Both the position numbers and the translations under genes were made by a program. From the IMG/VR virus record IMGVR_UViG_2671180556_000003: a DNA stretch of 12,470 bases, one strand, 5' to 3'. Under the pieces are notes generated by a model that was given only the letters and a program-made list of their open reading frames with translations, ran no database searches and was not told the origin of the DNA. Each line of letters opens with the position of its first letter. The first letter of the stretch is position 1. The DNA is from a virus. Lineage: Duplodnaviria; Heunggongvirae; Uroviricota; Caudoviricetes. This document shows, piece after piece, positions 2,661 to 10,699 of the stretch.

Positions 2661-3476
2661 TCAATGAACGGTATCGAGCAGCTTTAACAGCTCAGGGAAT
2701 CGGGATTCGAAGAAATGCGGCTGCGTCTCGCGCGGATTTGCGGGACTGGTGATGTTCTTGCCGAACATGCAACCTTTCGCTGTCAGCGACCAGAATTTTT
2801 TGATGTTGTTAATCGCGGTACGGCTGTATCGTTCGCGTTGTTCAACGATCCCCAGCTTCGCCATCTGGTGATATGCCTGATTAGCCGTCAGGCGGATACC
2901 ATACTGCTTCAGCAGTGCACTCAGCGACAGCGTAGGGCGGCTTGAACCATCTGGCGCATCAGCAGGTGCATCAATGGCATAGATCGGCATAAGTTCAGGA
3001 AGACCAGCTACCTTTGATAATTTCTGGTATGCACCAAGTTTCGAGGAGTTTGACAGATTTAGAGTCTTTGCTGCTGATTCAAGCAGAATGACCCCGGATT
3101 TAATTTTGTCGGATGTGGTTTCTTCTGGTGATGAATTATGAAGCGCATCAAAAGTACGTATCACTTTTAAGCTGAATGCCGGGCTGATCCACATTGCATA
3201 TGCATAGACCAGCTCTTTACAGACATACGTCCCACCATTGCGCCCCTGAATGGTGATGACAGGAATACTACGGGAATCTCCCGTAGTTTCTTCTTCCAAT
3301 AATTCCACAAGAGCCTTCGTTTCAGGACGACGCATAAACTCGTGAACTTCCAGCGAACGGGAGGAGCGATTCTCACCAGCGGCAAGAAGAGCAGCTTTCT
3401 GAAGGTCGTTAAGACAGTAGTTAGATTCGAAGTACTGGCGCACAGAAACGCCATCAATTACAAGCAACTGATTCAT
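2661..3476 (-). CDS. KilA-N domain protein with antirepressor-type C-terminal domain (Bro/Ant-like)
   Basis: ORF 2661..3488 in the track; 3488 is GTG. ATG at 3476 is preceded by GGAG at 6 nt. The motif GRNGGTYVCKELVYAYAMWISPAFSLKVIRTFDAL is a typical KilA-N core. The C-terminal region (LSALLKQYGIRLTANQAYHQMAKLGIVE...) resembles phage antirepressor C-terminal domains. Confidence 0.8.
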   Translation of the reverse strand: MNQLLVIDGVSVRQYFESNYCLNDLQKAALLAAGENRSSRSLEVHEFMRRPETKALVELLEEETTGDSRSIPVITIQGRNGGTYVCKELVYAYAMWISPAFSLKVIRTFDALHNSSPEETTSDKIKSGVILLESAAKTLNLSNSSKLGAYQKLSKVAGLPELMPIYAIDAPADAPDGSSRPTLSLSALLKQYGIRLTANQAYHQMAKLGIVEQRERYSRTAINNIKKFWSLTAKGCMFGKNITSPANPRETQPHFFESRFPELLKLLDTVH

Positions 3477-3638: not shown

Positions 3639-4034
3639 TTACCGAGTTGCTAATTTGCAACTCGCTTTTTCGTACTTACTGATAGTGATCTCGACCTTCC
3701 CCTCCGGGATAACCGGTCCCCACTCCACCAGCATTCTTTTCACCTGTCTGTCGTCTTCCCACACACCCGCGTGGGTCAGGGCGTCAAACAGCGCCTTGTT
3801 ATAGTTGTCCAGATCGCGGATCCGGTTATCCGGAGGAAACAACACGATCTCCACTGAAGCAGGTGCCGACGTTGGTTTCGGCAGACGACGTAACTGCTCA
3901 ACTATTGCTGCACACGCCGCGCTCTGGAATTTTCGCCCCGCCGCGCTTATCAGGCTCTTACCAGCAAACGCCCCTTTGTTGGGGTGTCGCCAGTACGTGT
4001 TCACGCTGGGCGGAAAAGGCAGTATTAGCTTCAT
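3639..4034 (-). CDS. rusA: Holliday junction resolvase RusA
   Basis: 131 aa. ILPFPPSVNTYWRH and IRDLDNYNKALFDALTHAGVWEDDRQV match the RusA family (E. coli RusA: LPWPPSNNRYYRH...RRDLDNLQKAAFDALTKAG). ATG at 4034 overlaps the upstream stop (ATGA). Confidence 0.85.
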   Translation of the reverse strand: MKLILPFPPSVNTYWRHPNKGAFAGKSLISAAGRKFQSAACAAIVEQLRRLPKPTSAPASVEIVLFPPDNRIRDLDNYNKALFDALTHAGVWEDDRQVKRMLVEWGPVIPEGKVEITISKYEKASCKLATR

Positions 4035-5101: not shown

Positions 5102-6109
5102 TCACCCCCTGAATCCTTCCGGGATCTGGCTGTAGTCCACGTTGTCGTAACTGGCTTTGAAGTACGGGTCCTCGCGTCTGGCTGCAGATACCGCAGGAAC
5201 TTCCCAGGATTCTTCGAAATGACGATCCGGACCAAAGAACGTCGACGCCTGCTTCACGAACTGGGTACCGGTATTTCCAGAGACACGCACCCAGGCGGCA
5301 TAGCGTTTCACACCGTCGAGCATGGTTTCGGGTGTCACACCTTCCCTGATTCGGGCTTTCCAGGCTTTAAAAGCGGCGGATTTTGAATTACCACCAGCAC
5401 GTTTGGGATATTCCTGCCAGGCCTGTTCAAATTCCGGTGAATATTCCTGTCTGGCAGAACGCGCTGGTGCAGACGCGTCAGCGGATGCGCCAATAGTGTT
5501 TTTAGTCTCCGTTGTAATCTCTGTAGTAATCTCTGTAGTAATCTCTGTAGTAATCTCTGTATTTGTATCAACATTCGGCGTATCCCCTGTTCCGTTATGA
5601 CGTCGGGGGGTGTTCCGTTTTAACGTAATAGCTGTATCGCTGATTGCATTATTGCTGTTACTTTCTGGCGAAACAGAAGAAGGTGTGGTGATGGCCGCAA
5701 TTGCCTGTGGGTTGATCCCGACAAACAAAATATTGCTGCATTTCACCCCATCGAGCATTTCCACCGTGCGTAAATCCAGAGTAATAAACCCTGCATCGCG
5801 CAGACGCTTCAGCGCATCTGCGGTTTCCCTTTTCCCGAAACCAAACTGCTCAGCAAACGCCTGGTAGCTTCTTTGCAGTTTGTCGCCCTGAAAACGCTTG
5901 CGATATCCCAGCAACGCTCCGGTGTGCTCATCCCTGACCTCTGTCGGGCGGTACCAGTAAACGATCTCTGAAAGCAGAGCGATAGCCGTCGCATCCGGAC
6001 GCCCACTGGGTAGTCGAATATATTTCCACCAGGTCGCAGGTGTAACATTGCCGGAAATATTAATTTGACCAATAGCCATAACTTCCGGTGTGGGGGCGTA
6101 ACGGCTCAT
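5102..6109 (-). CDS. Replication initiation protein (O-like replisome organiser) with internal tandem repeats
   Basis: 335 aa. ATG at 6109 with GGAGG at 4 nt. It has a two-domain layout: an N-terminal winged-helix-like domain and a C-terminal domain containing EFEQAWQEYPKRAGGNSKSAAFKAWKARI, which I recall as typical of phage replication initiators. The two are joined by a low-complexity linker encoding (TEIT)x4. Position after the cro/cII-like/Rha genes fits an O-type gene. Confidence 0.65.
   Translation of the reverse strand: MSRYAPTPEVMAIGQINISGNVTPATWWKYIRLPSGRPDATAIALLSEIVYWYRPTEVRDEHTGALLGYRKRFQGDKLQRSYQAFAEQFGFGKRETADALKRLRDAGFITLDLRTVEMLDGVKCSNILFVGINPQAIAAITTPSSVSPESNSNNAISDTAITLKRNTPRRHNGTGDTPNVDTNTEITTEITTEITTEITTETKNTIGASADASAPARSARQEYSPEFEQAWQEYPKRAGGNSKSAAFKAWKARIREGVTPETMLDGVKRYAAWVRVSGNTGTQFVKQASTFFGPDRHFEESWEVPAVSAARREDPYFKASYDNVDYSQIPEGFRG
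5515..5562. repeat. Four perfect tandem copies of a 12-bp unit (GTAATCTCTGTA) inside the replication gene; iteron-like
   Basis: Seen in sequence: units at 5515-5526, 5527-5538, 5539-5550 and 5551-5562 are identical, with degenerate partial copies on both flanks. On the minus strand they encode TEITTEITTEITTEIT in the linker of the 5102..6109 protein. Confidence 0.9.
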
Positions 6110-6405: not shown

Positions 6406-6626
6406 GCCACACCTCCCAGACGCTTAAACATTTTTCCGGAGCAAAAGGCTATAAGCGGCATACTGACGCGGTAATTACGGCCCAGCGGTTCACAAACCAC
6501 CTTCTGACATTCACGGTCAACCAGGCTAACACGTAGAACATGCCCAGCAGGCGTGGTGTACCACTGACCCGGACGAGGACAACGGAAAGTATGATTGGTA
6601 AACCGTTTGAAAATATTCCGGATCAT
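6402..6626 (-). CDS. Hypothetical small protein
   Basis: 74 aa. ATG at 6626 overlaps the Rha ORF stop (ATGA). AAGGGGG SD at about 5 nt. Contains paired Cys residues (RCPRPG...RECQKVVCEP), a possible zinc ribbon. Function unknown. Confidence 0.55.
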   Translation of the reverse strand: MIRNIFKRFTNHTFRCPRPGQWYTTPAGHVLRVSLVDRECQKVVCEPLGRNYRVSMPLIAFCSGKMFKRLGGVA

Positions 6627-7783
6627 TTGCGCCCCCTTACCTCTGAAGGGTTCAGCGACAAATTTATGAGACTGGCCAGCGCCGAAGCATCATTAATATA
6701 GTCATATAAGCTAACAGCCAGCGGAGATTCGGCTTTTGCCAACATAGGATAAAGCTGCTGCAGCCAGACCTGATGAATTGATGAAATGTAGGAACAGAGA
6801 ACGCTGGCGTTATGTGCAACGTCGCTCGGTACAGCGGGCTTTGAAAGCTGTTTCTCCATCTGGTTAAAGGCATTTATGTATGCCTCTTTGAACCGGGCAG
6901 CACGTTTACCCGTGAAACCCATAGCAAGAAACGCAAAACCGTCTCGTGTGATTTGATAGCAAGGGAGCTTGCGTGTACCACCGTTCGGTTGATTTACCGA
7001 AATCGATGTCTCCGCAAAATTGCGGGCACAAAACTCTGGGGAACAATCCAGAGTGCGGATCTTTTTCAGCACATCGTCGTGACGCTTGGAGAAGAAGTTG
7101 GCAACAGCCAAAGAAGTGGTAACGGCCTGGCCGTTGTCAATGGTGATTTCAGGTTGAGTGAGGGCTGGGATCGTAGCCATGATGGCAGCCTCCGTTGACA
7201 GTGAAAAACTTCCACCACCGGAAACGCCAATTTCACTGGTGGTGAACTGGACGGGGTTGGCGTAACCGGCGTCAACGGAGACCGGCGCACCTTTCGGTGC
7301 CCCCGCCCAGCCCACCATAATCTGGATGTGAGCAAATGCGGACGATAAAAAAGACGCTGGCGCGTCATACATCGCCGTTGACAATTTCAGGACGCCAATC
7401 CCGGCACCCGCTTTATAAGGTGCCTGAGCAGTGTAACGTCCCGGAATTGCAGAATCAATATGCTGGTGGTCCTTCACACTCAACAAAATCACGCCTGAAT
7501 TTCCACAAAGGACTAAAGCACTCATGCGGGTAGTCTTTGCGAAGATAGATAACGCGCTGTGTTTCTGGCTCCCAACGAATAACATGGACATAAAGCCCTC
7601 TTCCGTCACGAAACCAGCGGTTAAGTTCCTGCACAACTCGCCCCCCACAGTCAGGTAAAGTTCTCTGTGGTTACTTACAGCCAGGTGATTTGGTAATCTG
7701 CATTCATGCCGTAACAACAGGTGTTCAGCGACGCTGACCACCAGCTGTTGCGACAAACGGTTATTTGCCGTTAAACTATTCAT
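6623..7783 (-). CDS. Rha-family phage regulatory protein (Rha domain in the C-terminal half; alternative internal start at 7180)
   Basis: 386-aa ORF. Residues about 218-300 (TTSLAVANFFSKRHDDVLKKIRTL...KLPCYQITRDGFAFLAMGFTGKRAARFKEAYINAFNQMEKQL) match the Rha domain. ATG at 7783 overlaps the upstream stop (ATGA). An internal ATG at 7180 (MATIPALTQ...) has a GGAGG SD and would give a canonical 185-aa Rha protein. Both other minus frames across 7181-7780 are full of stops, so the extension is either coding in this frame or non-coding. Confidence 0.6.
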   Translation of the reverse strand: MNSLTANNRLSQQLVVSVAEHLLLRHECRLPNHLAVSNHRELYLTVGGELCRNLTAGFVTEEGFMSMLFVGSQKHSALSIFAKTTRMSALVLCGNSGVILLSVKDHQHIDSAIPGRYTAQAPYKAGAGIGVLKLSTAMYDAPASFLSSAFAHIQIMVGWAGAPKGAPVSVDAGYANPVQFTTSEIGVSGGGSFSLSTEAAIMATIPALTQPEITIDNGQAVTTSLAVANFFSKRHDDVLKKIRTLDCSPEFCARNFAETSISVNQPNGGTRKLPCYQITRDGFAFLAMGFTGKRAARFKEAYINAFNQMEKQLSKPAVPSDVAHNASVLCSYISSIHQVWLQQLYPMLAKAESPLAVSLYDYINDASALASLINLSLNPSEVRGRK

Positions 7784-8391: not shown

Positions 8392-8589
8392 TTATGCCGC
8401 AGCACTGTTAGTCTTTTGATATAAAGACACGTCAACTTTCAGTTTCCCGTTAGTAATTTTTTCTAACTGGTACGCTCGGCCTTCAGGAATAATCTCAGGC
8501 CACTCTGAAACAGACGGATGCTTAATACCTAGGGCTTCGGCGATTTTACAAACTCCGCCGAAATAATTAATCACGTCGGATTTCCGCAT
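8392..8589 (-). CDS. cro: Cro-like repressor (Cro/CI-type HTH)
   Basis: 65 aa, divergent from cI across the operator region. YFGGVCKIAEALGIKHPSVSEW is a typical Cro/YdaS-type HTH. GGGAGA SD at about 5 nt. Confidence 0.8.
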   Translation of the reverse strand: MRKSDVINYFGGVCKIAEALGIKHPSVSEWPEIIPEGRAYQLEKITNGKLKVDVSLYQKTNSAAA

Positions 8590-8620: not shown

Positions 8621-8686
8621 AATGTAGGATATCCAACATGCCAATGTCAAGAATCCTACATGGGCATGTGGTAGGATTGCCTACAT
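8621..8686. promoter_or_regulatory. Right operator region: three operator sites overlapping the PR promoter (minus strand) and the cI start
   Basis: Seen in sequence: site 1 ATGTAGGATATCCAACAT (8622-8639), site 2 ATGTCAAGAATCCTACAT (8644-8661), site 3 ATGTGGTAGGATTGCCTACAT (8666-8686). PR on the minus strand has -35 TTGACA (plus 8650..8645) and, after an 18-nt spacer, -10 TACATT (plus 8626..8621). A possible cI promoter on the plus strand is TTAAAT(8602-8607)-N17-TAGGAT(8625-8630). Confidence 0.7.
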
Positions 8687-9338
8687 GATGAACATGAGTG
8701 ATCGTATTCGCCAAAGGCGAAAAGAACTGAACCTGACACAACAAGCACTGGCTGATTTGACTGGTGTGAACCGTGTCACGGTTACTGGATGGGAAAAGGA
8801 CGACTACCAACCAAATGGAGCCAACCTTCAAGCCCTAGCCAACGCACTTAAATGCGATCCTCTGTGGCTTGTTAGCGGAAAAGGCTCGCCTGAACCAAAG
8901 ATAAATCTAAAACCTGAAATATTCGCAGTTAAAAAAGTCCCCCTAATCTCGTGGGTTCAGGCGGGTTCATGGACAATGACGGAGCCTGGTGTCAGGAAAG
9001 AAGATGCTGAAGAGTGGGTTTATACTACCGCCCTTGTATCAGAAATGGCATTTGCACTACGGGTCCGTGGTGATTCAATGACCAATCCCCTCGGCTCACC
9101 ATCGATACCAGAAGGTTCTATCGTTATCGTAGAGCCAGATATTATTGATACAGAGTGTATTAACGGAAAAATCGTTGTTGCCCATATCAATGGTGGGCAA
9201 GAAGCGACACTCAAAAAATTTGTTGAGGACTGGCCGAACAGGTATCTCGTCCCACTAAATCCTAACTATAAAACTATTGAATGCGGTGAGAACTGCAGAA
9301 TAGTTGGTCTTGTCAAACAAGTAATAATGGATTTTTGA
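8685..9338 (+). CDS. cI: CI-type prophage repressor (N-terminal XRE HTH, C-terminal S24 LexA-like autopeptidase)
   Basis: 217 aa. N-terminal HTH LTQQALADLTGVNRVTVTGWE, then a C-terminal S24 domain with the catalytic Ser in RVRGDSM and a Lys in ATLKKF. Three in-frame ATGs at 8685, 8688 and 8694 make the exact start uncertain, and the first lies inside operator site 3. Confidence 0.9.
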   Translation: MMNMSDRIRQRRKELNLTQQALADLTGVNRVTVTGWEKDDYQPNGANLQALANALKCDPLWLVSGKGSPEPKINLKPEIFAVKKVPLISWVQAGSWTMTEPGVRKEDAEEWVYTTALVSEMAFALRVRGDSMTNPLGSPSIPEGSIVIVEPDIIDTECINGKIVVAHINGGQEATLKKFVEDWPNRYLVPLNPNYKTIECGENCRIVGLVKQVIMDF

Positions 9339-9356
9339 CACATCTTCCTCACTATC

Positions 9357-9386
9357 GCAAAACCGGGGTATCCCCGGTTTTTTTAT
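9357..9386 (+). terminator. Rho-independent terminator downstream of cI
   Basis: Seen in sequence: AAAACCGGGG(9359-9368) / loop TAT / CCCCGGTTTT with a T-run to 9386. Perfect 8-bp GC-rich stem plus A/T extension, 18 nt after the cI stop. The A-run on the other side makes it potentially bidirectional. Confidence 0.75.
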
Positions 9387-9400
9387 GAGCCTATCTTTTT

Positions 9401-9454
9401 ATGTAGGATAACCAACATAAACTCTTGACACTCGCATGTTGGATATCCTACATT
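9401..9454 (+). promoter_or_regulatory. Left operator region and PL promoter
   Basis: Seen in sequence: operator ATGTAGGATAACCAACAT (9401-9418) and inverted copy ATGTTGGATATCCTACAT (9436-9453). -35 TTGACA (9425-9430), 18-nt spacer, -10 TACATT (9449-9454). Same architecture as PR. Confidence 0.7.
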
Positions 9455-9612
9455 TGTTTTTAGAGTTGTGGTGAATGCGCAGGCTGATGCGCGAAAGACA
9501 TTGCAGCTATTGCGGAAAAGAGCTGTTCGGCGGGGCAATTAAACGCCCGTGAGAGTCTGAAATAACCGCAAGCCGGAGATCAGCATCGGTCACCACAGCA
9601 GCCACTGCTTTG

Positions 9613-9659
9613 GCGGTACCAGTTTGTACACTTGCTTCCGGCTGGTACCGCTCTTTTTA
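9613..9659 (+). terminator. Terminator-like hairpin in the PL leader (possible tL or attenuator)
   Basis: Seen in sequence: GCGGTACCAG (9613-9622) and CTGGTACCGC (9642-9651) are a perfect 10-bp inverted repeat with a 19-nt loop, followed by TCTTTTTAC. CGCTCTTTTTACAA also resembles a boxA-like element (rrn boxA is TGCTCTTTAACAA). Confidence 0.45.
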
Positions 9660-9661
9660 CA

Positions 9662-9744
9662 AAACAGAGAAGAGCATCACCGGACGACGGGCTCATAACC
9701 CAATCCACCCGGGCGGCTGCCACCGCAGGTGTTCTTCTCTGTTT
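9662..9744 (+). promoter_or_regulatory. Long inverted repeat or structured RNA element in the PL leader, upstream of the first gene
   Basis: Seen in sequence: AAACAGAGAAGA (9662-9673) and TCTTCTCTGTTT (9733-9744) are perfect 12-bp reverse complements, extendable to about 17 bp with G-U pairs, enclosing a GC-rich loop of about 49 nt that contains CCCGGG. Confidence 0.4.
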
Positions 9745-9781
9745 TGTGGAGAAACTAATATCTTGTGCAGAGGAAAATAGA

Positions 9782-10699
9782 ATGAAATTACCAAAATTTC
9801 GTAACGCAATTGTGTACCGAGCAACATTACCTAGTATACAGGCTATTGAAGGTCATCTTCTCGAACTCCCTTATTCTGAAATCGGGGAAACAGAATTTTC
9901 ACGGTCCTCTTTTGTAGAGAATCCTGTCACTGGTGAACTGGTAACTCCGATATCTGGTGGGTACGCAATGGTAATCCGTCATGATCAGAAAATAATTCCC
10001 CGACATGTCGTCATGAAAGAAGCTAATTCTCGAATCCAAACAATCGAAAATATGTCCGGGAATAAATTAAAGCGTGCCGAACGACTGGCCATTATTGATA
10101 ACGTACGAGTAGATCTATGCAAACAGGCATTTGTTAAGTCTACGCTGATTCTTGCATTGTACAGCACTGATGAGAAATTATTGGTAATCAACACAACCAA
10201 TAAAATAATAGCCGGTATGGTATGCGCAATGCTGATTAAGGTTGTCGGTTCAGTGAAAACAGAAACAATCAACATCAGTGATATCAAGAATGGACTGACT
10301 ACACGCCTGAATAACTACATCAATGGTGCAGCCAATGCATTTGAAGGATTCACTGTCGGAAATTATATTCAGCTATCACGCTACGCAGATCAAAAGGAAA
10401 TTATTCGCTACTCAGCTGAGCATGAGTCAATTCAAAGCGAACTGGCCGATAGTCTTAGTAGTAGTTTCACTGCTGATAAAATGGAGTTATCCGGTTGCGG
10501 TGTGACCTTCATTCTTACCGAAAATTTCCATTTTTCGCGCATCAATACTCAATCTCAGACATTTAATGATGAAGATGATAAAGCATTCCAGTGGCGTCAT
10601 CAGACTGGCGCTGACCTTTTCCAATTCAGCAAGGTAGTTAATTTGATGTGTGACCTTCTTTCTTACAAAGAAGATAAAAGCCAAAATCCAACAACTTAA
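9782..10699 (+). CDS. RdgC-like recombination-associated protein
   Basis: ORF 9632..10699 in the track; the ATG at 9782 follows GAGGAAAA. 305 aa, similar in length to E. coli RdgC (303 aa). N-terminus MKLPKFRNAIVYRATLP vs RdgC MLWFKNLMVYRLSR; QKIIPRHVVMKEANSRIQTIENMSGNKLKRAERLAIIDNVRVDLCKQAF vs RdgC [49 protein letters not shown]. Alignment is from memory. Confidence 0.7.
   Translation: MKLPKFRNAIVYRATLPSIQAIEGHLLELPYSEIGETEFSRSSFVENPVTGELVTPISGGYAMVIRHDQKIIPRHVVMKEANSRIQTIENMSGNKLKRAERLAIIDNVRVDLCKQAFVKSTLILALYSTDEKLLVINTTNKIIAGMVCAMLIKVVGSVKTETINISDIKNGLTTRLNNYINGAANAFEGFTVGNYIQLSRYADQKEIIRYSAEHESIQSELADSLSSSFTADKMELSGCGVTFILTENFHFSRINTQSQTFNDEDDKAFQWRHQTGADLFQFSKVVNLMCDLLSYKEDKSQNPTT

Follow-up and report, generated by a model that had tools for sequence, protein, structure and literature searches.

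How does a lambdoid phage without an N gene express its early left operon, and what occupies the stretch between its PL promoter and its first gene? We addressed this question in a 12,470-nucleotide stretch of Caudoviricetes DNA (IMG/VR record IMGVR_UViG_2671180556_000003, hereafter the window) that spans from Q to 2.7 kb beyond PL and contains a gap of 326 nt between PL and the first gene. The question extends to other N-less lambdoid prophages, which include SfV, mEp460, cdtI, Stx2c phages, ST64B-like phages and phiNP. An earlier note on this DNA had offered three explanations for the gap, namely RNA-based antitermination of the HK022 put type, attenuation by a leader peptide and an N-like gene broken by a nonsense codon. 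We conclude that the PL-to-first-gene stretch is a conserved folded RNA leader and not a broken N gene.

The PL control region is bounded upstream by the terminator of a cI-like repressor gene (9360..9385, + strand), read from the sequence as AAACCGGGG-UAU-CCCCGGUUU followed by a T-run. The cI-like protein itself (8685-9338) carries HTH_3 and Peptidase_S24 domains according to Pfam. PL lies at 9425..9454 on the + strand as TTGACA-18 nt-TACATT, with 10 of 12 matches, which confirms the − 10 hexamer previously placed at 9449-9454; PR, at 8650-8621 on the − strand, is its twin. The OL region (9401..9453, assigned to neither strand) is composed of two 18-bp operators at 9401-9418 and 9436-9453 that flank or overlap PL and are of the same type as the operator covering PR (8622-8639). 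This 18-bp operator pattern is found at three sites in the window, with none expected from 200 shuffles. PL is a repressor-controlled promoter.

The first early-left gene, a place held in lambda by N with its arginine-rich motif, here encodes an RdgC-family protein (9782-10699; RdgC Pfam match, E 5e-31). The segment 9761..9784 (+ strand) contains the remnant of a small hairpin with a (G)UGCAG loop (UCUUGUGCAGAGGA), the Shine-Dalgarno sequence GAGGA (9770-9774) and the ATG of this gene at 9782; at the same site relatives have a GC hairpin that is stronger and has UGCAG or GGCAG as its loop. From Q (1275-1661) onwards up to 12149, Pfam searches of every sizeable ORF revealed no N-like protein, and Pfam and PHROG searches of the window ORFs found no ORF of N size with a family match between PL and the RdgC-family gene at 9782, as the earlier note had observed for N-size ORFs in general. 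The complete phage Lys8385Vzw, which has the immunity region and leader in common with this prophage, has no N annotated between PL and int. A conventional N gene elsewhere in the phage had been named as the finding that would speak against an unusual leader; none is present among the window ORFs and none is annotated in Lys8385Vzw. This is a phage without an N gene.

The leader contains a hairpin that resembles an intrinsic terminator and is followed by a U-run (9612..9658, + strand). The arms 9613-9622 and 9642-9651 are 100 % complementary, and RNAfold extends the stem to 13 bp (9612-9652; − 21.2 kcal/mol, z − 3.7) upstream of TTTTT at 9654-9658, so that the 10-bp-stem hairpin and T-run first described at 9613-9659 are upheld with a longer stem. 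The loop of 15-19 nt is unusually large, and a simple terminator scan misses the hairpin because the loop exceeds 8 nt. A GC-rich hairpin of variable sequence and a run of T5-T7 stand directly before the conserved element that follows (module 2, below) in about 139 of its 142 copies, a count that overstates the independent support because many of these copies are near-identical. We consider the hairpin at 9612..9658 to be the putative leader attenuator and the putative 3′ end of a PL leader RNA of about 200 nt. The boxA-like string noticed earlier in this region did not hold up: GCTCTT is found in only 45 of the 142 copies, where it corresponds to the 3′ end of one terminator-stem allele, and no GNRA-like pentaloop hairpin of the boxB kind follows it in the leader sequence. 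The boxA reading was rejected as an allele-specific coincidence within the terminator stem.

Upstream of this hairpin lies module 1 (9465..9599, + strand), a multi-branched RNA of about 135 nt in which GUUGUGGUGA (9465-9474) pairs with UCACCACAGC (9590-9599). The PL transcript enters module 1 a few nucleotides after its presumed start, as placed from the − 10 hexamer. Module 1 is one allele of an exchangeable cassette slot: in related leaders, the same closing helix and flanks recur around 10 or more different interiors. Taken on its own, the fold of module 1 is not better than that of shuffled sequences (z only − 1.1). Together with the terminator hairpin and U-run it makes up a unit of about 200 nt arranged as promoter, structured RNA and intrinsic terminator. 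Some slot alleles resemble the Hfq-bound sRNA STnc100 (Rfam RF02076), with 39.5 bits for the SfV-type allele and 35.1 and 36.3 bits for the alleles of leaders L004 and L123, all under the gathering cut-off of 47 bits. The allele of leader L105 scores 43.9 bits on the Rfam tRNA model (cut-off 29) and is the sole module 1 allele to score as a tRNA. The window allele has no Rfam match at E <= 10, STnc100 included; its 5′ flank GUUGUGGUGAAUGCG and its 3′ flank CACCACAAC running into the terminator are common to the window and the STnc100-like alleles, while the interior differs.

Module 2 (9659..9758, + strand; covariance model R1) is 100 nt long and starts directly after the terminator U-run. It is modelled as a three-way-junction RNA on the + strand with P1 (9659-9678 with 9728-9747), P2 (9680-9712), P3 (9713-9726) and a conserved tail GGAGAAAC (9748-9755). 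The inverted repeat that the earlier note had placed at 9662-9744 is part of this element and longer than described, with arms at 9659-9683 and 9723-9747. As RNA, P1 forms 23 consecutive pairs (9656-9678 with 9728-9750; − 47.1 kcal/mol, z − 5.8). R1 detects a single copy in the window, at 9659-9758, with 105.1 bits on the + strand and 40.5 bits on the − strand. Copies elsewhere measure 98, 99, 100, 101, 102, 121 or 125 nt.

Judged by sequence comparison, neither the hairpin and U-run nor the inverted repeat can be put down to chance: in more than 140 related leaders the structures are conserved while the sequences change. Structural conservation in relatives had been suggested as a check on these hairpins, and the comparison shows it. 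RNAalifold and pair counts gave 97.5 % of cells paired compared to 36-49 % in slid controls, and in alignment A3 the P1 and P3 segments were hand-picked for complementarity. Eight pairs of module 2 have compensatory changes, with compensation in all variable helices, and none of 500 shuffles of the module 2 alignment reached the observed value on four of five measures. Many of the G·U pairs are valid on the + strand only. For the lower part of P2, the register given by RNAalifold (G28-C47, A29-U46) was replaced by a 7-bp helix, P2a, on the basis of covariation in Klebsiella, L046 and L249. Six of the seven pairs of the position-defined P2a helix are changed on both sides among enteric and non-enteric copies.

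Rfam has no family for module 2, either in the window at gathering cut-offs or in the leader at E <= 10, and the non-enteric copies have no Rfam match either. A literature search with the module 2 core sequence gave no paper with a match. Module 2 is a previously undescribed RNA motif, absent from Rfam 15.

The apex of P2 in module 2 (9687..9705, + strand) is near-invariant and reads AC-GGG-CUCAUAA-CCC-AAUC with CAU at 9694-9696. Positions 9689-9701 correspond to three G-C pairs closing a 7-nt loop in which CAU occupies tRNA positions 34-36. Compared to the anticodon arm of E. coli tRNA-fMet (nt 27-43; tRNA sequence confirmed with annotated tRNA-Met genes), the apex agrees at 15 of 17 positions, with 27:43 and 28:42 mismatched when the window sequence is read against tRNA-fMet. 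CAU is invariant in all module 2 copies, including those found without requiring the core, and in the latter the variation is limited to loop positions 32, 33, 37 and 38 and one stem base; 37 and 38 may be occupied by U and C, which is not tRNA-like. By these letters, the P2 apex is nearly identical to the initiator-tRNA anticodon arm. The tRNA likeness of module 2 is confined to this arm: ARAGORN finds 0 tRNA genes and Rfam no tRNA match in the window, and tRNA finders report none in 11 related leaders.

In Klebsiella, Raoultella, Pantoea, unknown metagenome contigs and, as the most distant case, a MAG of the Acidobacteriaceae, the flanking helices are unrelated and the apex core between them is identical in every letter. 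A sequence conserved in this way is usually one that touches a universal cellular machine, and the copying of the initiator anticodon arm suggests either the translation-initiation apparatus or enzymes that act on tRNA.

Of 5426 complete E. coli genomes, 2487 (about 46 %) carry module 2 without an annotation, and it is found in at least 15 genera of Enterobacterales in addition to non-enteric contigs. It occurs once per phage, on the sense strand, and always in the leader of the early-left or the late operon. The first genes after it are of the RdgC type, the YfdP type and others; in Raoultella it stands upstream of a holin-like gene, and in a non-enteric contig upstream of YqaJ/RecT. In K-12, the CPS-53 prophage has module 2 deleted upstream of yfdP. 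The one plasmid copy examined is on an IncF plasmid, seems to be left over from a prophage and adds no information.

Two settings can be distinguished. In PL-type leaders, module 2 is always located 17-45 nt upstream of the first start codon, within a helix of 19-25 bp, a placement that a purely cis role would explain equally well. In Klebsiella phages, it is located in the Q-dependent late leader after Q and the tRNAs, as the last unit of the tRNA array, with tRNA-like spacing and an RCCA tail; P1 of these late-leader copies is only 6 bp, and they lie far from any start codon. Some related leaders have weaker long-stem units with other interiors arrayed upstream of module 2.

We propose, with a probability of roughly 45 %, that the 326-nt leader is a non-coding modular RNA in which an attenuating terminator is followed by a mimic of the initiator-tRNA arm. 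Without N, the leader terminator would act as an attenuator of PL transcription, and most PL transcripts would end as an sRNA-like leader of about 200 nt. The read-through fraction would carry module 2 together with the rdgC operon. Module 2 would then be a functional RNA itself. By imitating the anticodon arm of the initiator tRNA, it would engage a conserved component of the cell that reads this arm; the candidates are the 30S P site together with IF3, or else a nuclease or other enzyme directed at tRNA-fMet. From such mimicry it would follow that module 2 is a regulator or decoy that the operon yields before any other product, and that it does not modify RNA polymerase in the manner of put.

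A more specific form of this proposal, which we hold only tentatively and consider rather doubtful, is that module 2 is an initiator-arm decoy that neutralises a host factor targeting tRNA-fMet or docks in the 30S P site. An example of such a target may be a VapC-type anticodon nuclease acting as an abortive-infection toxin, while docking in the 30S P site may reprogram initiation. On this decoy reading, module 2 would be produced ahead of everything else in the early-left operon, or else together with the late tRNAs.

Alternatively, module 2 may be a cis element for processing, stability or translation, a possibility that we also rate as doubtful. The P1 duplex would absorb the terminator U-run, and cleavage would free the leader RNA from the early-left mRNA, setting the 5′ end, the stability and the translation of the first gene. 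A P1 of 19-25 bp is a plausible RNase III substrate, and the C4-like shape is a plausible RNase P substrate. RNase III acts likewise in the lambda N leader and at T7 early sites. In favor of a cis element are the 23 consecutive pairs of P1 with the U-run included, the position 17-45 nt before the start codon in PL-type leaders with a small hairpin overlapping the Shine-Dalgarno sequence behind it, the topology of a long stem enclosing two hairpins as in the RNase P-processed C4, and the arrays of weaker long-stem units in related leaders. However, a cis element gives no reason for a near-invariant P2 apex next to a freely covarying P1. It also does not account for the late-leader copies, whose 6-bp P1 is too short for RNase III and which are far from start codons, nor for the presence of the same core with unrelated P1 helices in other lineages.

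Processive antitermination of the put type, in which a leader module would bind RNA polymerase, carry it past the leader terminator, downstream terminators and Rho sites and so replace N, is in our view unlikely. The lack of an N gene is consistent with it, and so are the start of module 1 about 5-10 nt from the PL start and before the terminator, where putL sits, and the restriction of the modules to leaders of antitermination-type operons (PL and Q-dependent late). On the other hand, the best-conserved module, module 2, comes after the terminator, and in some relatives (such as L089) it follows PL with no terminator between, while module 1 is a freely exchanged cassette and not a conserved sequence. 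No strong intrinsic terminator is predicted in the 2.7 kb after the leader, and no counterpart of the modules is found downstream of PR. The suggestion of an HK022-put-like element finds no backing in sequence likeness (a low-power test, detailed below), in architecture, which is not that of two stem-loops of about 70 nt, or in a second copy in the PR operon.

Module 2 might also be a C4-type antisense RNA whose CAU loop, after processing, pairs with AUG initiation regions in cis or in trans and blocks translation, although we judge this improbable. Its three-way topology is the same as that of the C4 in the PR operon of the same phage, and the loop GCUCAUA is complementary to the start region UAUGAGC/GAUGAGU of first genes of the YfdP/sb37 type. 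This complementarity falls to 4 nt for first genes of the RdgC type, the window included, and no conserved complement of the CAU loop was found within 2 kb on either side. Pairing of the loop would require neither the invariant GGG/CCC stem nor the AC/AAUC internal loop, and the C4 clan of Rfam gives no match. A comparison of the CAU loop with the downstream 120 nt by RNAduplex yielded no consistent site. A perfect 9-nt complement, TTATGAGCC at 9384-9392, was considered as a target and set aside, being found only in this immunity type.

Coding readings have very little chance of being correct, and we have rejected them on both strands. An ATG at 9475 opens a 25-codon ORF (9475..9552, + strand; peptide MRRLMRERHCSYCGKELFGGAIKRP) that ends at TGA 9550-9552, and translation confirms the earlier observation that the frame then stays open to TAG 9778-9780, giving a frame of 101 codons interrupted by one TGA. 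This would be compatible with an N-like gene broken at 9550. A minus-strand ORF at 9580-9723, annotated in mEp460 and cdtI, matches phrog_3651 (E 7e-27), a phrog with no assigned function, as a real gene might. Against a coding remnant on either strand, neither the 25-codon ORF nor the read-through frame has a PHROG match, related copies differ in length by numbers not divisible by 3, relative L046 has stops in all six frames, and the helices of the leader RNA carry compensatory changes and G·U pairs. The source of phrog_3651 is likely to be automatic ORF calls over a conserved palindromic RNA element, and the hypothetical protein annotated over module 2 in several phage records is probably an artefact. 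We judge the 25-codon ORF to be non-coding. Attenuation by a leader peptide, in which translation of this ORF would control the hairpin at 9612-9658, has next to no chance of being right: an ATG-initiated ORF does lie upstream of a terminator-like hairpin and the 3′ foot of the terminator has an 11-nt complement at 9516-9526, but by our estimate about 0.5 such complements are expected by chance in the stretch, the ORF has neither a Shine-Dalgarno sequence nor a run of regulatory codons, its peptide is not conserved, its ATG, located within the conserved closing-helix motif, is absent from most slot alleles, and its stop codon is about 60 nt upstream of the hairpin.

Returning to the modular RNA with an initiator-arm mimic, the leader offers a testable unit for N-less early-left expression, consisting of promoter, structured RNA, terminator and conserved RNA. 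There is current interest in phage tRNAs that overcome defences based on tRNA cleavage, and a minimal RNA mimic would be a new variation on this theme and possibly a new class of tRNA mimic. If true, the decoy would be an RNA-only device for counter-defence or takeover, present in the prophages of about 46 % of complete E. coli genomes and in phages from other phyla as well.

HK022 put RNA, which acts on RNA polymerase through the beta′ zinc-binding domain and so suppresses pausing and termination, is among the nearest known systems. It consists of two stem-loops in about 70 nt (PMC9378689). Both it and the elements described here are structured, cis-encoded RNAs in the early leader of an N-less lambdoid phage, and module 1, like putL, begins nearly at the PL start. 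In contrast to put, we find a multi-branched module of about 135 nt and a three-way junction of 100 nt, whose predicted folds differ from those of put, and the best-conserved module is downstream of the first terminator. While put is found in both the PL and the PR operon, these modules are downstream of PL with none after PR, where there is no room for a put-like copy because only about 27 nt separate cro from the next gene. For the sequence comparison, putL and putR were taken from NC_002166, whose numbering agrees with PMC9378689. Using blastn-short, only chance 7-11-mers were recovered, one 7-mer of them within 9455-9781, in what is a low-power test because putL and putR share only 7-8-mers with each other. 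A literature search on N-less lambdoid antitermination gave nothing relevant.

The first half of the leader is reminiscent of the STnc100 (RF02076)/PasD sRNAs, which are likewise Hfq-type units of about 200 nt with a structured body, a terminator hairpin and a U-tail in prophage leader or moron regions. Slot alleles match STnc100 over its full length and share the GUGGUGAAU...CACCAC closing helix and the terminator. They differ in scoring 35-39 bits against a cut-off of 47, the window allele has another interior and no match, and the unit described here is driven directly by PL. The literature on STnc100, Pas sRNAs and anti-sRNAs describes neighbouring elements and not module 2.

Module 2 can be compared to the C4 RNA of P1/P7 (RF01695), with which it shares a long closing helix around two hairpins and a position in a phage operon leader. 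A true C4 (7235-7322, 81 bits) is present in the PR operon of this phage, while the C4 clan (CL00128; C4, c4-2, c4-a1b1) has no match in 9300-9900 at E <= 10. The single-stranded conserved parts of module 2 are the 7-nt CAU loop and the AC/AAUC internal loop, in contrast to the a′/b′ antisense loops of C4.

Other RNAs are known to imitate tRNAs in part or as a whole. In the thrS operator, a hairpin in the 5′ leader copies the anticodon arm of one specific tRNA. Module 2 similarly places a copy of an anticodon arm a few tens of nucleotides ahead of a start codon, but the tRNA is the initiator, the element is phage-borne, the downstream genes are many and some copies are far from genes. T4 species 1 and 2 RNAs are small stable tRNA-like RNAs encoded in phage tRNA clusters. 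Module 2 differs from them in having neither a D nor a T arm and in being missed by tRNA finders, and its E. coli-type copies lie in a 20-bp helix without CCA. The likeness to the T4 RNAs lies in the Klebsiella late-leader copies, which close a tRNA array, keep a tRNA-like spacing and carry an RCCA tail.

Module 2 (9659-9758), the 3' part of the PL leader, is a covarying three-way junction whose apex copies the anticodon arm of the initiator tRNA. Upstream of it lie module 1 (9465-9599), which is one allele of a cassette slot, and the leader terminator (9612-9658). We hold this anatomy of the leader with high confidence.

The window covers a lambdoid prophage's immunity and early region. On the minus strand, in order of increasing distance from the immunity region, come a P22-type cro gene (8392-8589), a CII/CP76-like gene, the isrK and C4 RNAs (7423-7235), an Ash/Rha gene, then replication genes, Dam, a LexA-domain protein, RusA, KilA-N, DUF968 and finally the antiterminator Q (1275-1661). 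On the plus strand, a cI-like HTH/S24 repressor gene (8685-9338) with its own terminator behind it is followed by PL (9425-9454, TTGACA-18-TACATT), a gap of 326 nt without a gene, an RdgC-family gene (9782-10699), a YfbR/HD-like gene and more small genes. The twin of PL on the minus strand is PR (8650-8621), and a single 18-bp operator type lies over both (8622-8639, 9401-9418 and 9436-9453; 0 expected). Because of the twin promoters and their common operator the assignment of PL in the earlier note is sound, and PL is a repressor-controlled promoter.

The phage has no N gene. As had been claimed, no gene of N size follows PL: none of the ORFs that lie between PL and 9782 matches a protein family, and a family search of the ORFs from Q to the window end returned no N-like protein. 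The complete phage Lys8385Vzw, which has the repressor, PL and leader in common with the window at 98% identity, has no N gene annotated between PL and int.

On the PR side, C4 antisense RNA (81 bits) and isrK (62 bits) are full-length matches (7235-7423, minus strand) in the PR operon, and the pair is also found in SfV, mEp460 and others. Both lie within a long mechanical ORF (6623-7783), in which Ash and Rha make up the C-terminal half; by analogy with P1 icd-ant, the true start of the Rha/antirepressor gene is probably downstream of C4. Downstream of the Rha region, a 335-aa protein (ORF 5102-6109) with no Pfam match carries the tandem peptide repeat TEITTEITTEITTEITTE at about 5480-5560 (minus strand).

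The inverted repeat reported behind the terminator is real (arms 9659-9683 and 9723-9747), and 9656-9770 folds with 23 consecutive closing pairs and two inner hairpins (-47.1 kcal/mol, z -5.8). For seventeen representatives of at most 93% identity, RNAalifold gave three elements: P1, a long 19-pair helix, and two hairpins, P2 and P3, the latter hypervariable in both sequence and length. Paired cells reach 97.5% and 8 pairs are changed on both sides; on four of five measures 0 of 500 shuffles equalled the observed value, and sliding the 3' partners as a control lowered pairing to 36-49%. For a broader alignment, helix segments from 18 diverse copies were concatenated. In its most divergent members P1 and P3 were chosen by complementarity, and the counts for these two helices lean towards the structure. 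P2a, the 7-bp lower stem of P2 (9680-9686 with 9706-9712, plus strand), was set by position alone; 91% of it is paired, and changes on both sides are seen in 6 of its 7 pairs. Its covariation is strong, for example CCGGGUG/CACCCGG, CCAGGCG/CACCUGG, CCAUGCG/CGCAUGG, CCUGAUG/CAUCAGG, CUGUCUG/CGGGCAG, GAUCGUG/CACGAUU and CCAAUCG/CGAUUGG.

Many sequences have G·U at several positions, and U·G is found at columns 19:96 in 15 of 17. These pairs would read A·C on the opposite strand, which supports the plus strand. The covariance model built from the seventeen sequences (R1) scores 105.1 bits on the plus and 40.5 bits on the minus strand of the window, with no further copy there. A minus-strand ORF (9580-9723) matches phrog_3651 and is annotated in mEp460; since module 2 copies vary in length (98, 99, 100, 101, 102, 121 and 125 nt) and one has stops in all six frames, we regard this ORF as an annotation artefact.

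The motif GUUGUGGWGAA (window 9465-9475 and 9741-9755) recurs: every long-stem unit has it at the 3' end, and module 1 has it at the 5' end. In related leaders long-stem units are found in tandem; their interiors are different, some include T-loop-like hairpins (GUCCGUUCAAUUCGGAC), and the R1 scores of these units are weak (13-23 bits).

Above P2a, P2 has an asymmetric internal loop AC / AAUC, three G-C pairs and the loop CUCAUAA. The resulting AC-GGG-CUCAUAA-CCC-AA agrees with E. coli tRNA-fMet (nucleotides 27-43) in 15 of 17 positions. The tRNA-fMet reference has 100% identity to tRNA-Met genes annotated in four copies per genome, which we take to be the initiator genes. Because the first scans demanded the core, its invariance among their copies is circular; we therefore retrieved loci without this bias, scanning by the 3' flank motif and searching the new loci with the module 2 model. 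The ten further copies have at most one or two apex changes each: the loops UUCAUAA, CCCAUAA and CUCAUUC, CUC or ACC for CCC in the 3' strand of the upper stem and, in one copy, GG for GGG. CAU is unchanged throughout, including in these ten core-independent copies.

Right behind the cI terminator, TTATGAGCC (9384-9392) is a perfect 9-nt complement to the module 2 loop GGCUCAUAA, probably by chance, since it is restricted to phages with this immunity region. The 18-mer core also matches a locus of the Gammaproteobacteria MAG DTU037 (L175, ~3640-3740), seemingly an internally deleted tRNA-fMet gene in which the D arm and anticodon arm run straight on to the acceptor 3' strand and CCA.

The segment 9591-9758 is found at 95-99% identity in many phages of E. 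coli and Shigella (mEp460, cdtI, SfV, SfIV, 2H10, Ayreon and Stx2c/Stx2a phages) that differ in upstream repressors and downstream genes. Module 2 alone (9656-9765, at least 80% coverage) is found at 3359 places in 2487 of 5426 complete E. coli genomes, almost none of them annotated among the matches listed, and several hundred more copies came from pattern scans in collections of viral, genome and metagenome sequences. In early-left leaders of enteric prophages it lies 17-45 nt 5' of the first gene (YfdP/sb37-type, RdgC-type or other), often with a small (G)UGCAG-loop hairpin in between. In late leaders of Klebsiella phages it stands behind Q and a tRNA array, spaced as one more tRNA, and has a 6-bp P1 (GGCCUG/CAGGCC) followed by GCCA or ACCA; in Raoultella it is 60 nt upstream of a gene that is holin-like by sequence appearance. 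Other lineages are Pantoea, higher-GC contigs whose downstream genes include YqaJ exonuclease and RecT, which looks like an early-left recombination operon again, and an Acidobacteriaceae MAG, where it is an intergenic hairpin. There the 21-23-nt core is identical and every flanking helix is different; module 2 is therefore tied to phage operon leaders, not to a given downstream gene, terminator or P1.

In most relatives the space from module 2 to the first gene's SD holds a small GC hairpin (e.g. GGCGGUGGCAGCCGCC, CGCCAGUGCAGAGGCG) whose loop is (G)UGCAG or GGCAG, and in the window only UCUUGUGCAGAGGA is left of it (9761-9775); a similar hairpin is also near module 2 in non-enteric contigs (L355/L365). 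In CPS-53 of K-12 (L188, 7200-7640) unrelated repetitive sequence stands in place of the leader 5' of yfdP: the entire unit of terminator and module 2 is absent, and homology picks up again at ...ATGATGAGGAGCAGCAAAATGGCT.

The terminator-like hairpin is where it had been placed (arms 9613-9622 and 9642-9651, TTTTT at 9654-9658) and as RNA has 13 bp (-21.2 kcal/mol, z -3.7). About 139 of 142 early-left copies, many of them near-identical, have a GC-rich hairpin and a T5-T7 run directly 5' of module 2; an intrinsic-terminator-like hairpin is kept as structure across leaders. The boxA-like reading does not survive: GCUCUU, seen in just 45 of 142 copies, forms the end of a single allele of the terminator stem. 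Inside module 1, AAAAGAGCUGU (9516-9526) is 91% complementary to ACCGCUCUUUU (9647-9657), the terminator 3' foot and U-run, and could compete with the terminator; we estimate that ~0.5 such pairs are expected by chance.

5' of the terminator, related leaders have in common the helix GUUGUGGUG/CACCACAAC, which encloses at least ten unrelated interiors. The SfV-type interior matches the whole Rfam STnc100 model including the terminator at 39.5 bits, and two others score 35-36 bits (cut-off 47). Both STnc100 and PasD, which is related to it in structure, are prophage sRNAs that depend on Hfq (bioRxiv 10.64898/2026.05.13.724894; PMC8550237; PMC12370729). Another slot content (L105 1077-1203, minus strand; same slot in L099 and L126) scores 43.9 bits on the Rfam tRNA model, with the closing helix as acceptor stem, and received no tRNA call from ARAGORN. 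Hairpins resembling D and T arms are present, as is an insert of ~55 nt with a second CAU-loop hairpin, GG-UUCAUAA-CC, and this likeness suggests that the leader cassettes are tRNA-derived. The module 1 interior of the window has no Rfam match and folds no better than shuffles (z -1.1); it is thus a positional allele of the slot, not an STnc100 member. In the window the slot begins a few nt 3' of the presumed PL start (inferred from the -10 hexamer), and thus PL, module 1 and terminator are a complete unit of ~200 nt. The last hairpin of module 1, GCAAGCCGGAGAUCAGCAUCGGUCACCAC (L006 2600-2900; window 9560-9600), is matched at 85-93% over 30-40 nt in phages of very different kinds: P1-like RCS47 (within an annotated plp gene), various unrelated Klebsiella, Escherichia and Salmonella phages, and Aeromonas, Pseudomonas and Erwinia phages.

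The leader terminator would attenuate PL transcription, giving an sRNA-like leader of ~200 nt, with the early-left genes expressed from the fraction that reads through; we consider the chances of attenuation at this putative terminator evenly balanced. Module 2 may be a functional RNA that touches a universal cellular component recognising the initiator arm, the candidate partners being the 30S P site together with IF3, or else an enzyme or nuclease directed at tRNA-fMet. We hypothesize such a contact because module 2 occurs in two operon types, next to many neighbour genes, and its apex is conserved far beyond its helices. From sequence, action by initiator-arm mimicry is a tentative reading (probability roughly 0.3), which we rate above a purely cis processing role for module 2 and above a put-like role for the leader.

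The put-like role, in which the leader would act like the HK022 put RNAs, was one of three explanations offered by the earlier note. With putL and putR read from the HK022 genome, in a numbering under which the pairs and the -10-like element come out as published (PMC9378689), a sequence comparison of low power found chance words alone in common with the window. Unlike HK022, whose put folds differ from those of this leader, the window has no module copy on the PR side by R1 and has a conserved module downstream of the terminator. Leaders of phiNP and Salmonella (L003 ~1815-1890, L004 ~1945-2015, L112) have a conserved hairpin-rich element right after PL, CAGCGAACAGGCAGGACGCC...GGGAUGAUUCGCUG, at the position of putL in HK022 and with short strings in common with put (CGAAC.GGC, GGAUGA); the window is without this element. 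Leader-peptide attenuation fares worse. The 25-codon ORF exists and its frame does run on open beyond the stop, but the ORF has no SD and its ATG falls in the closing-helix motif GUGGUGAAUGCG, which is altered to GUGGUAAUCC, GUGGUGAUCA, GUGGAGUAUA or GUGGUUUAGC in other alleles. An N-like gene broken by the TGA at 9550 is dismissed, as the region has no family match and behaves as RNA.

Neither the window copy nor distant copies of module 2 fall in a family of Rfam 15, its core sequence was not found in the literature searched, and it does not feature in papers about prophage sRNAs that neighbour it. A member of no curated family, module 2 is filed here as akin to tRNA-arm mimics and phage leader RNAs.
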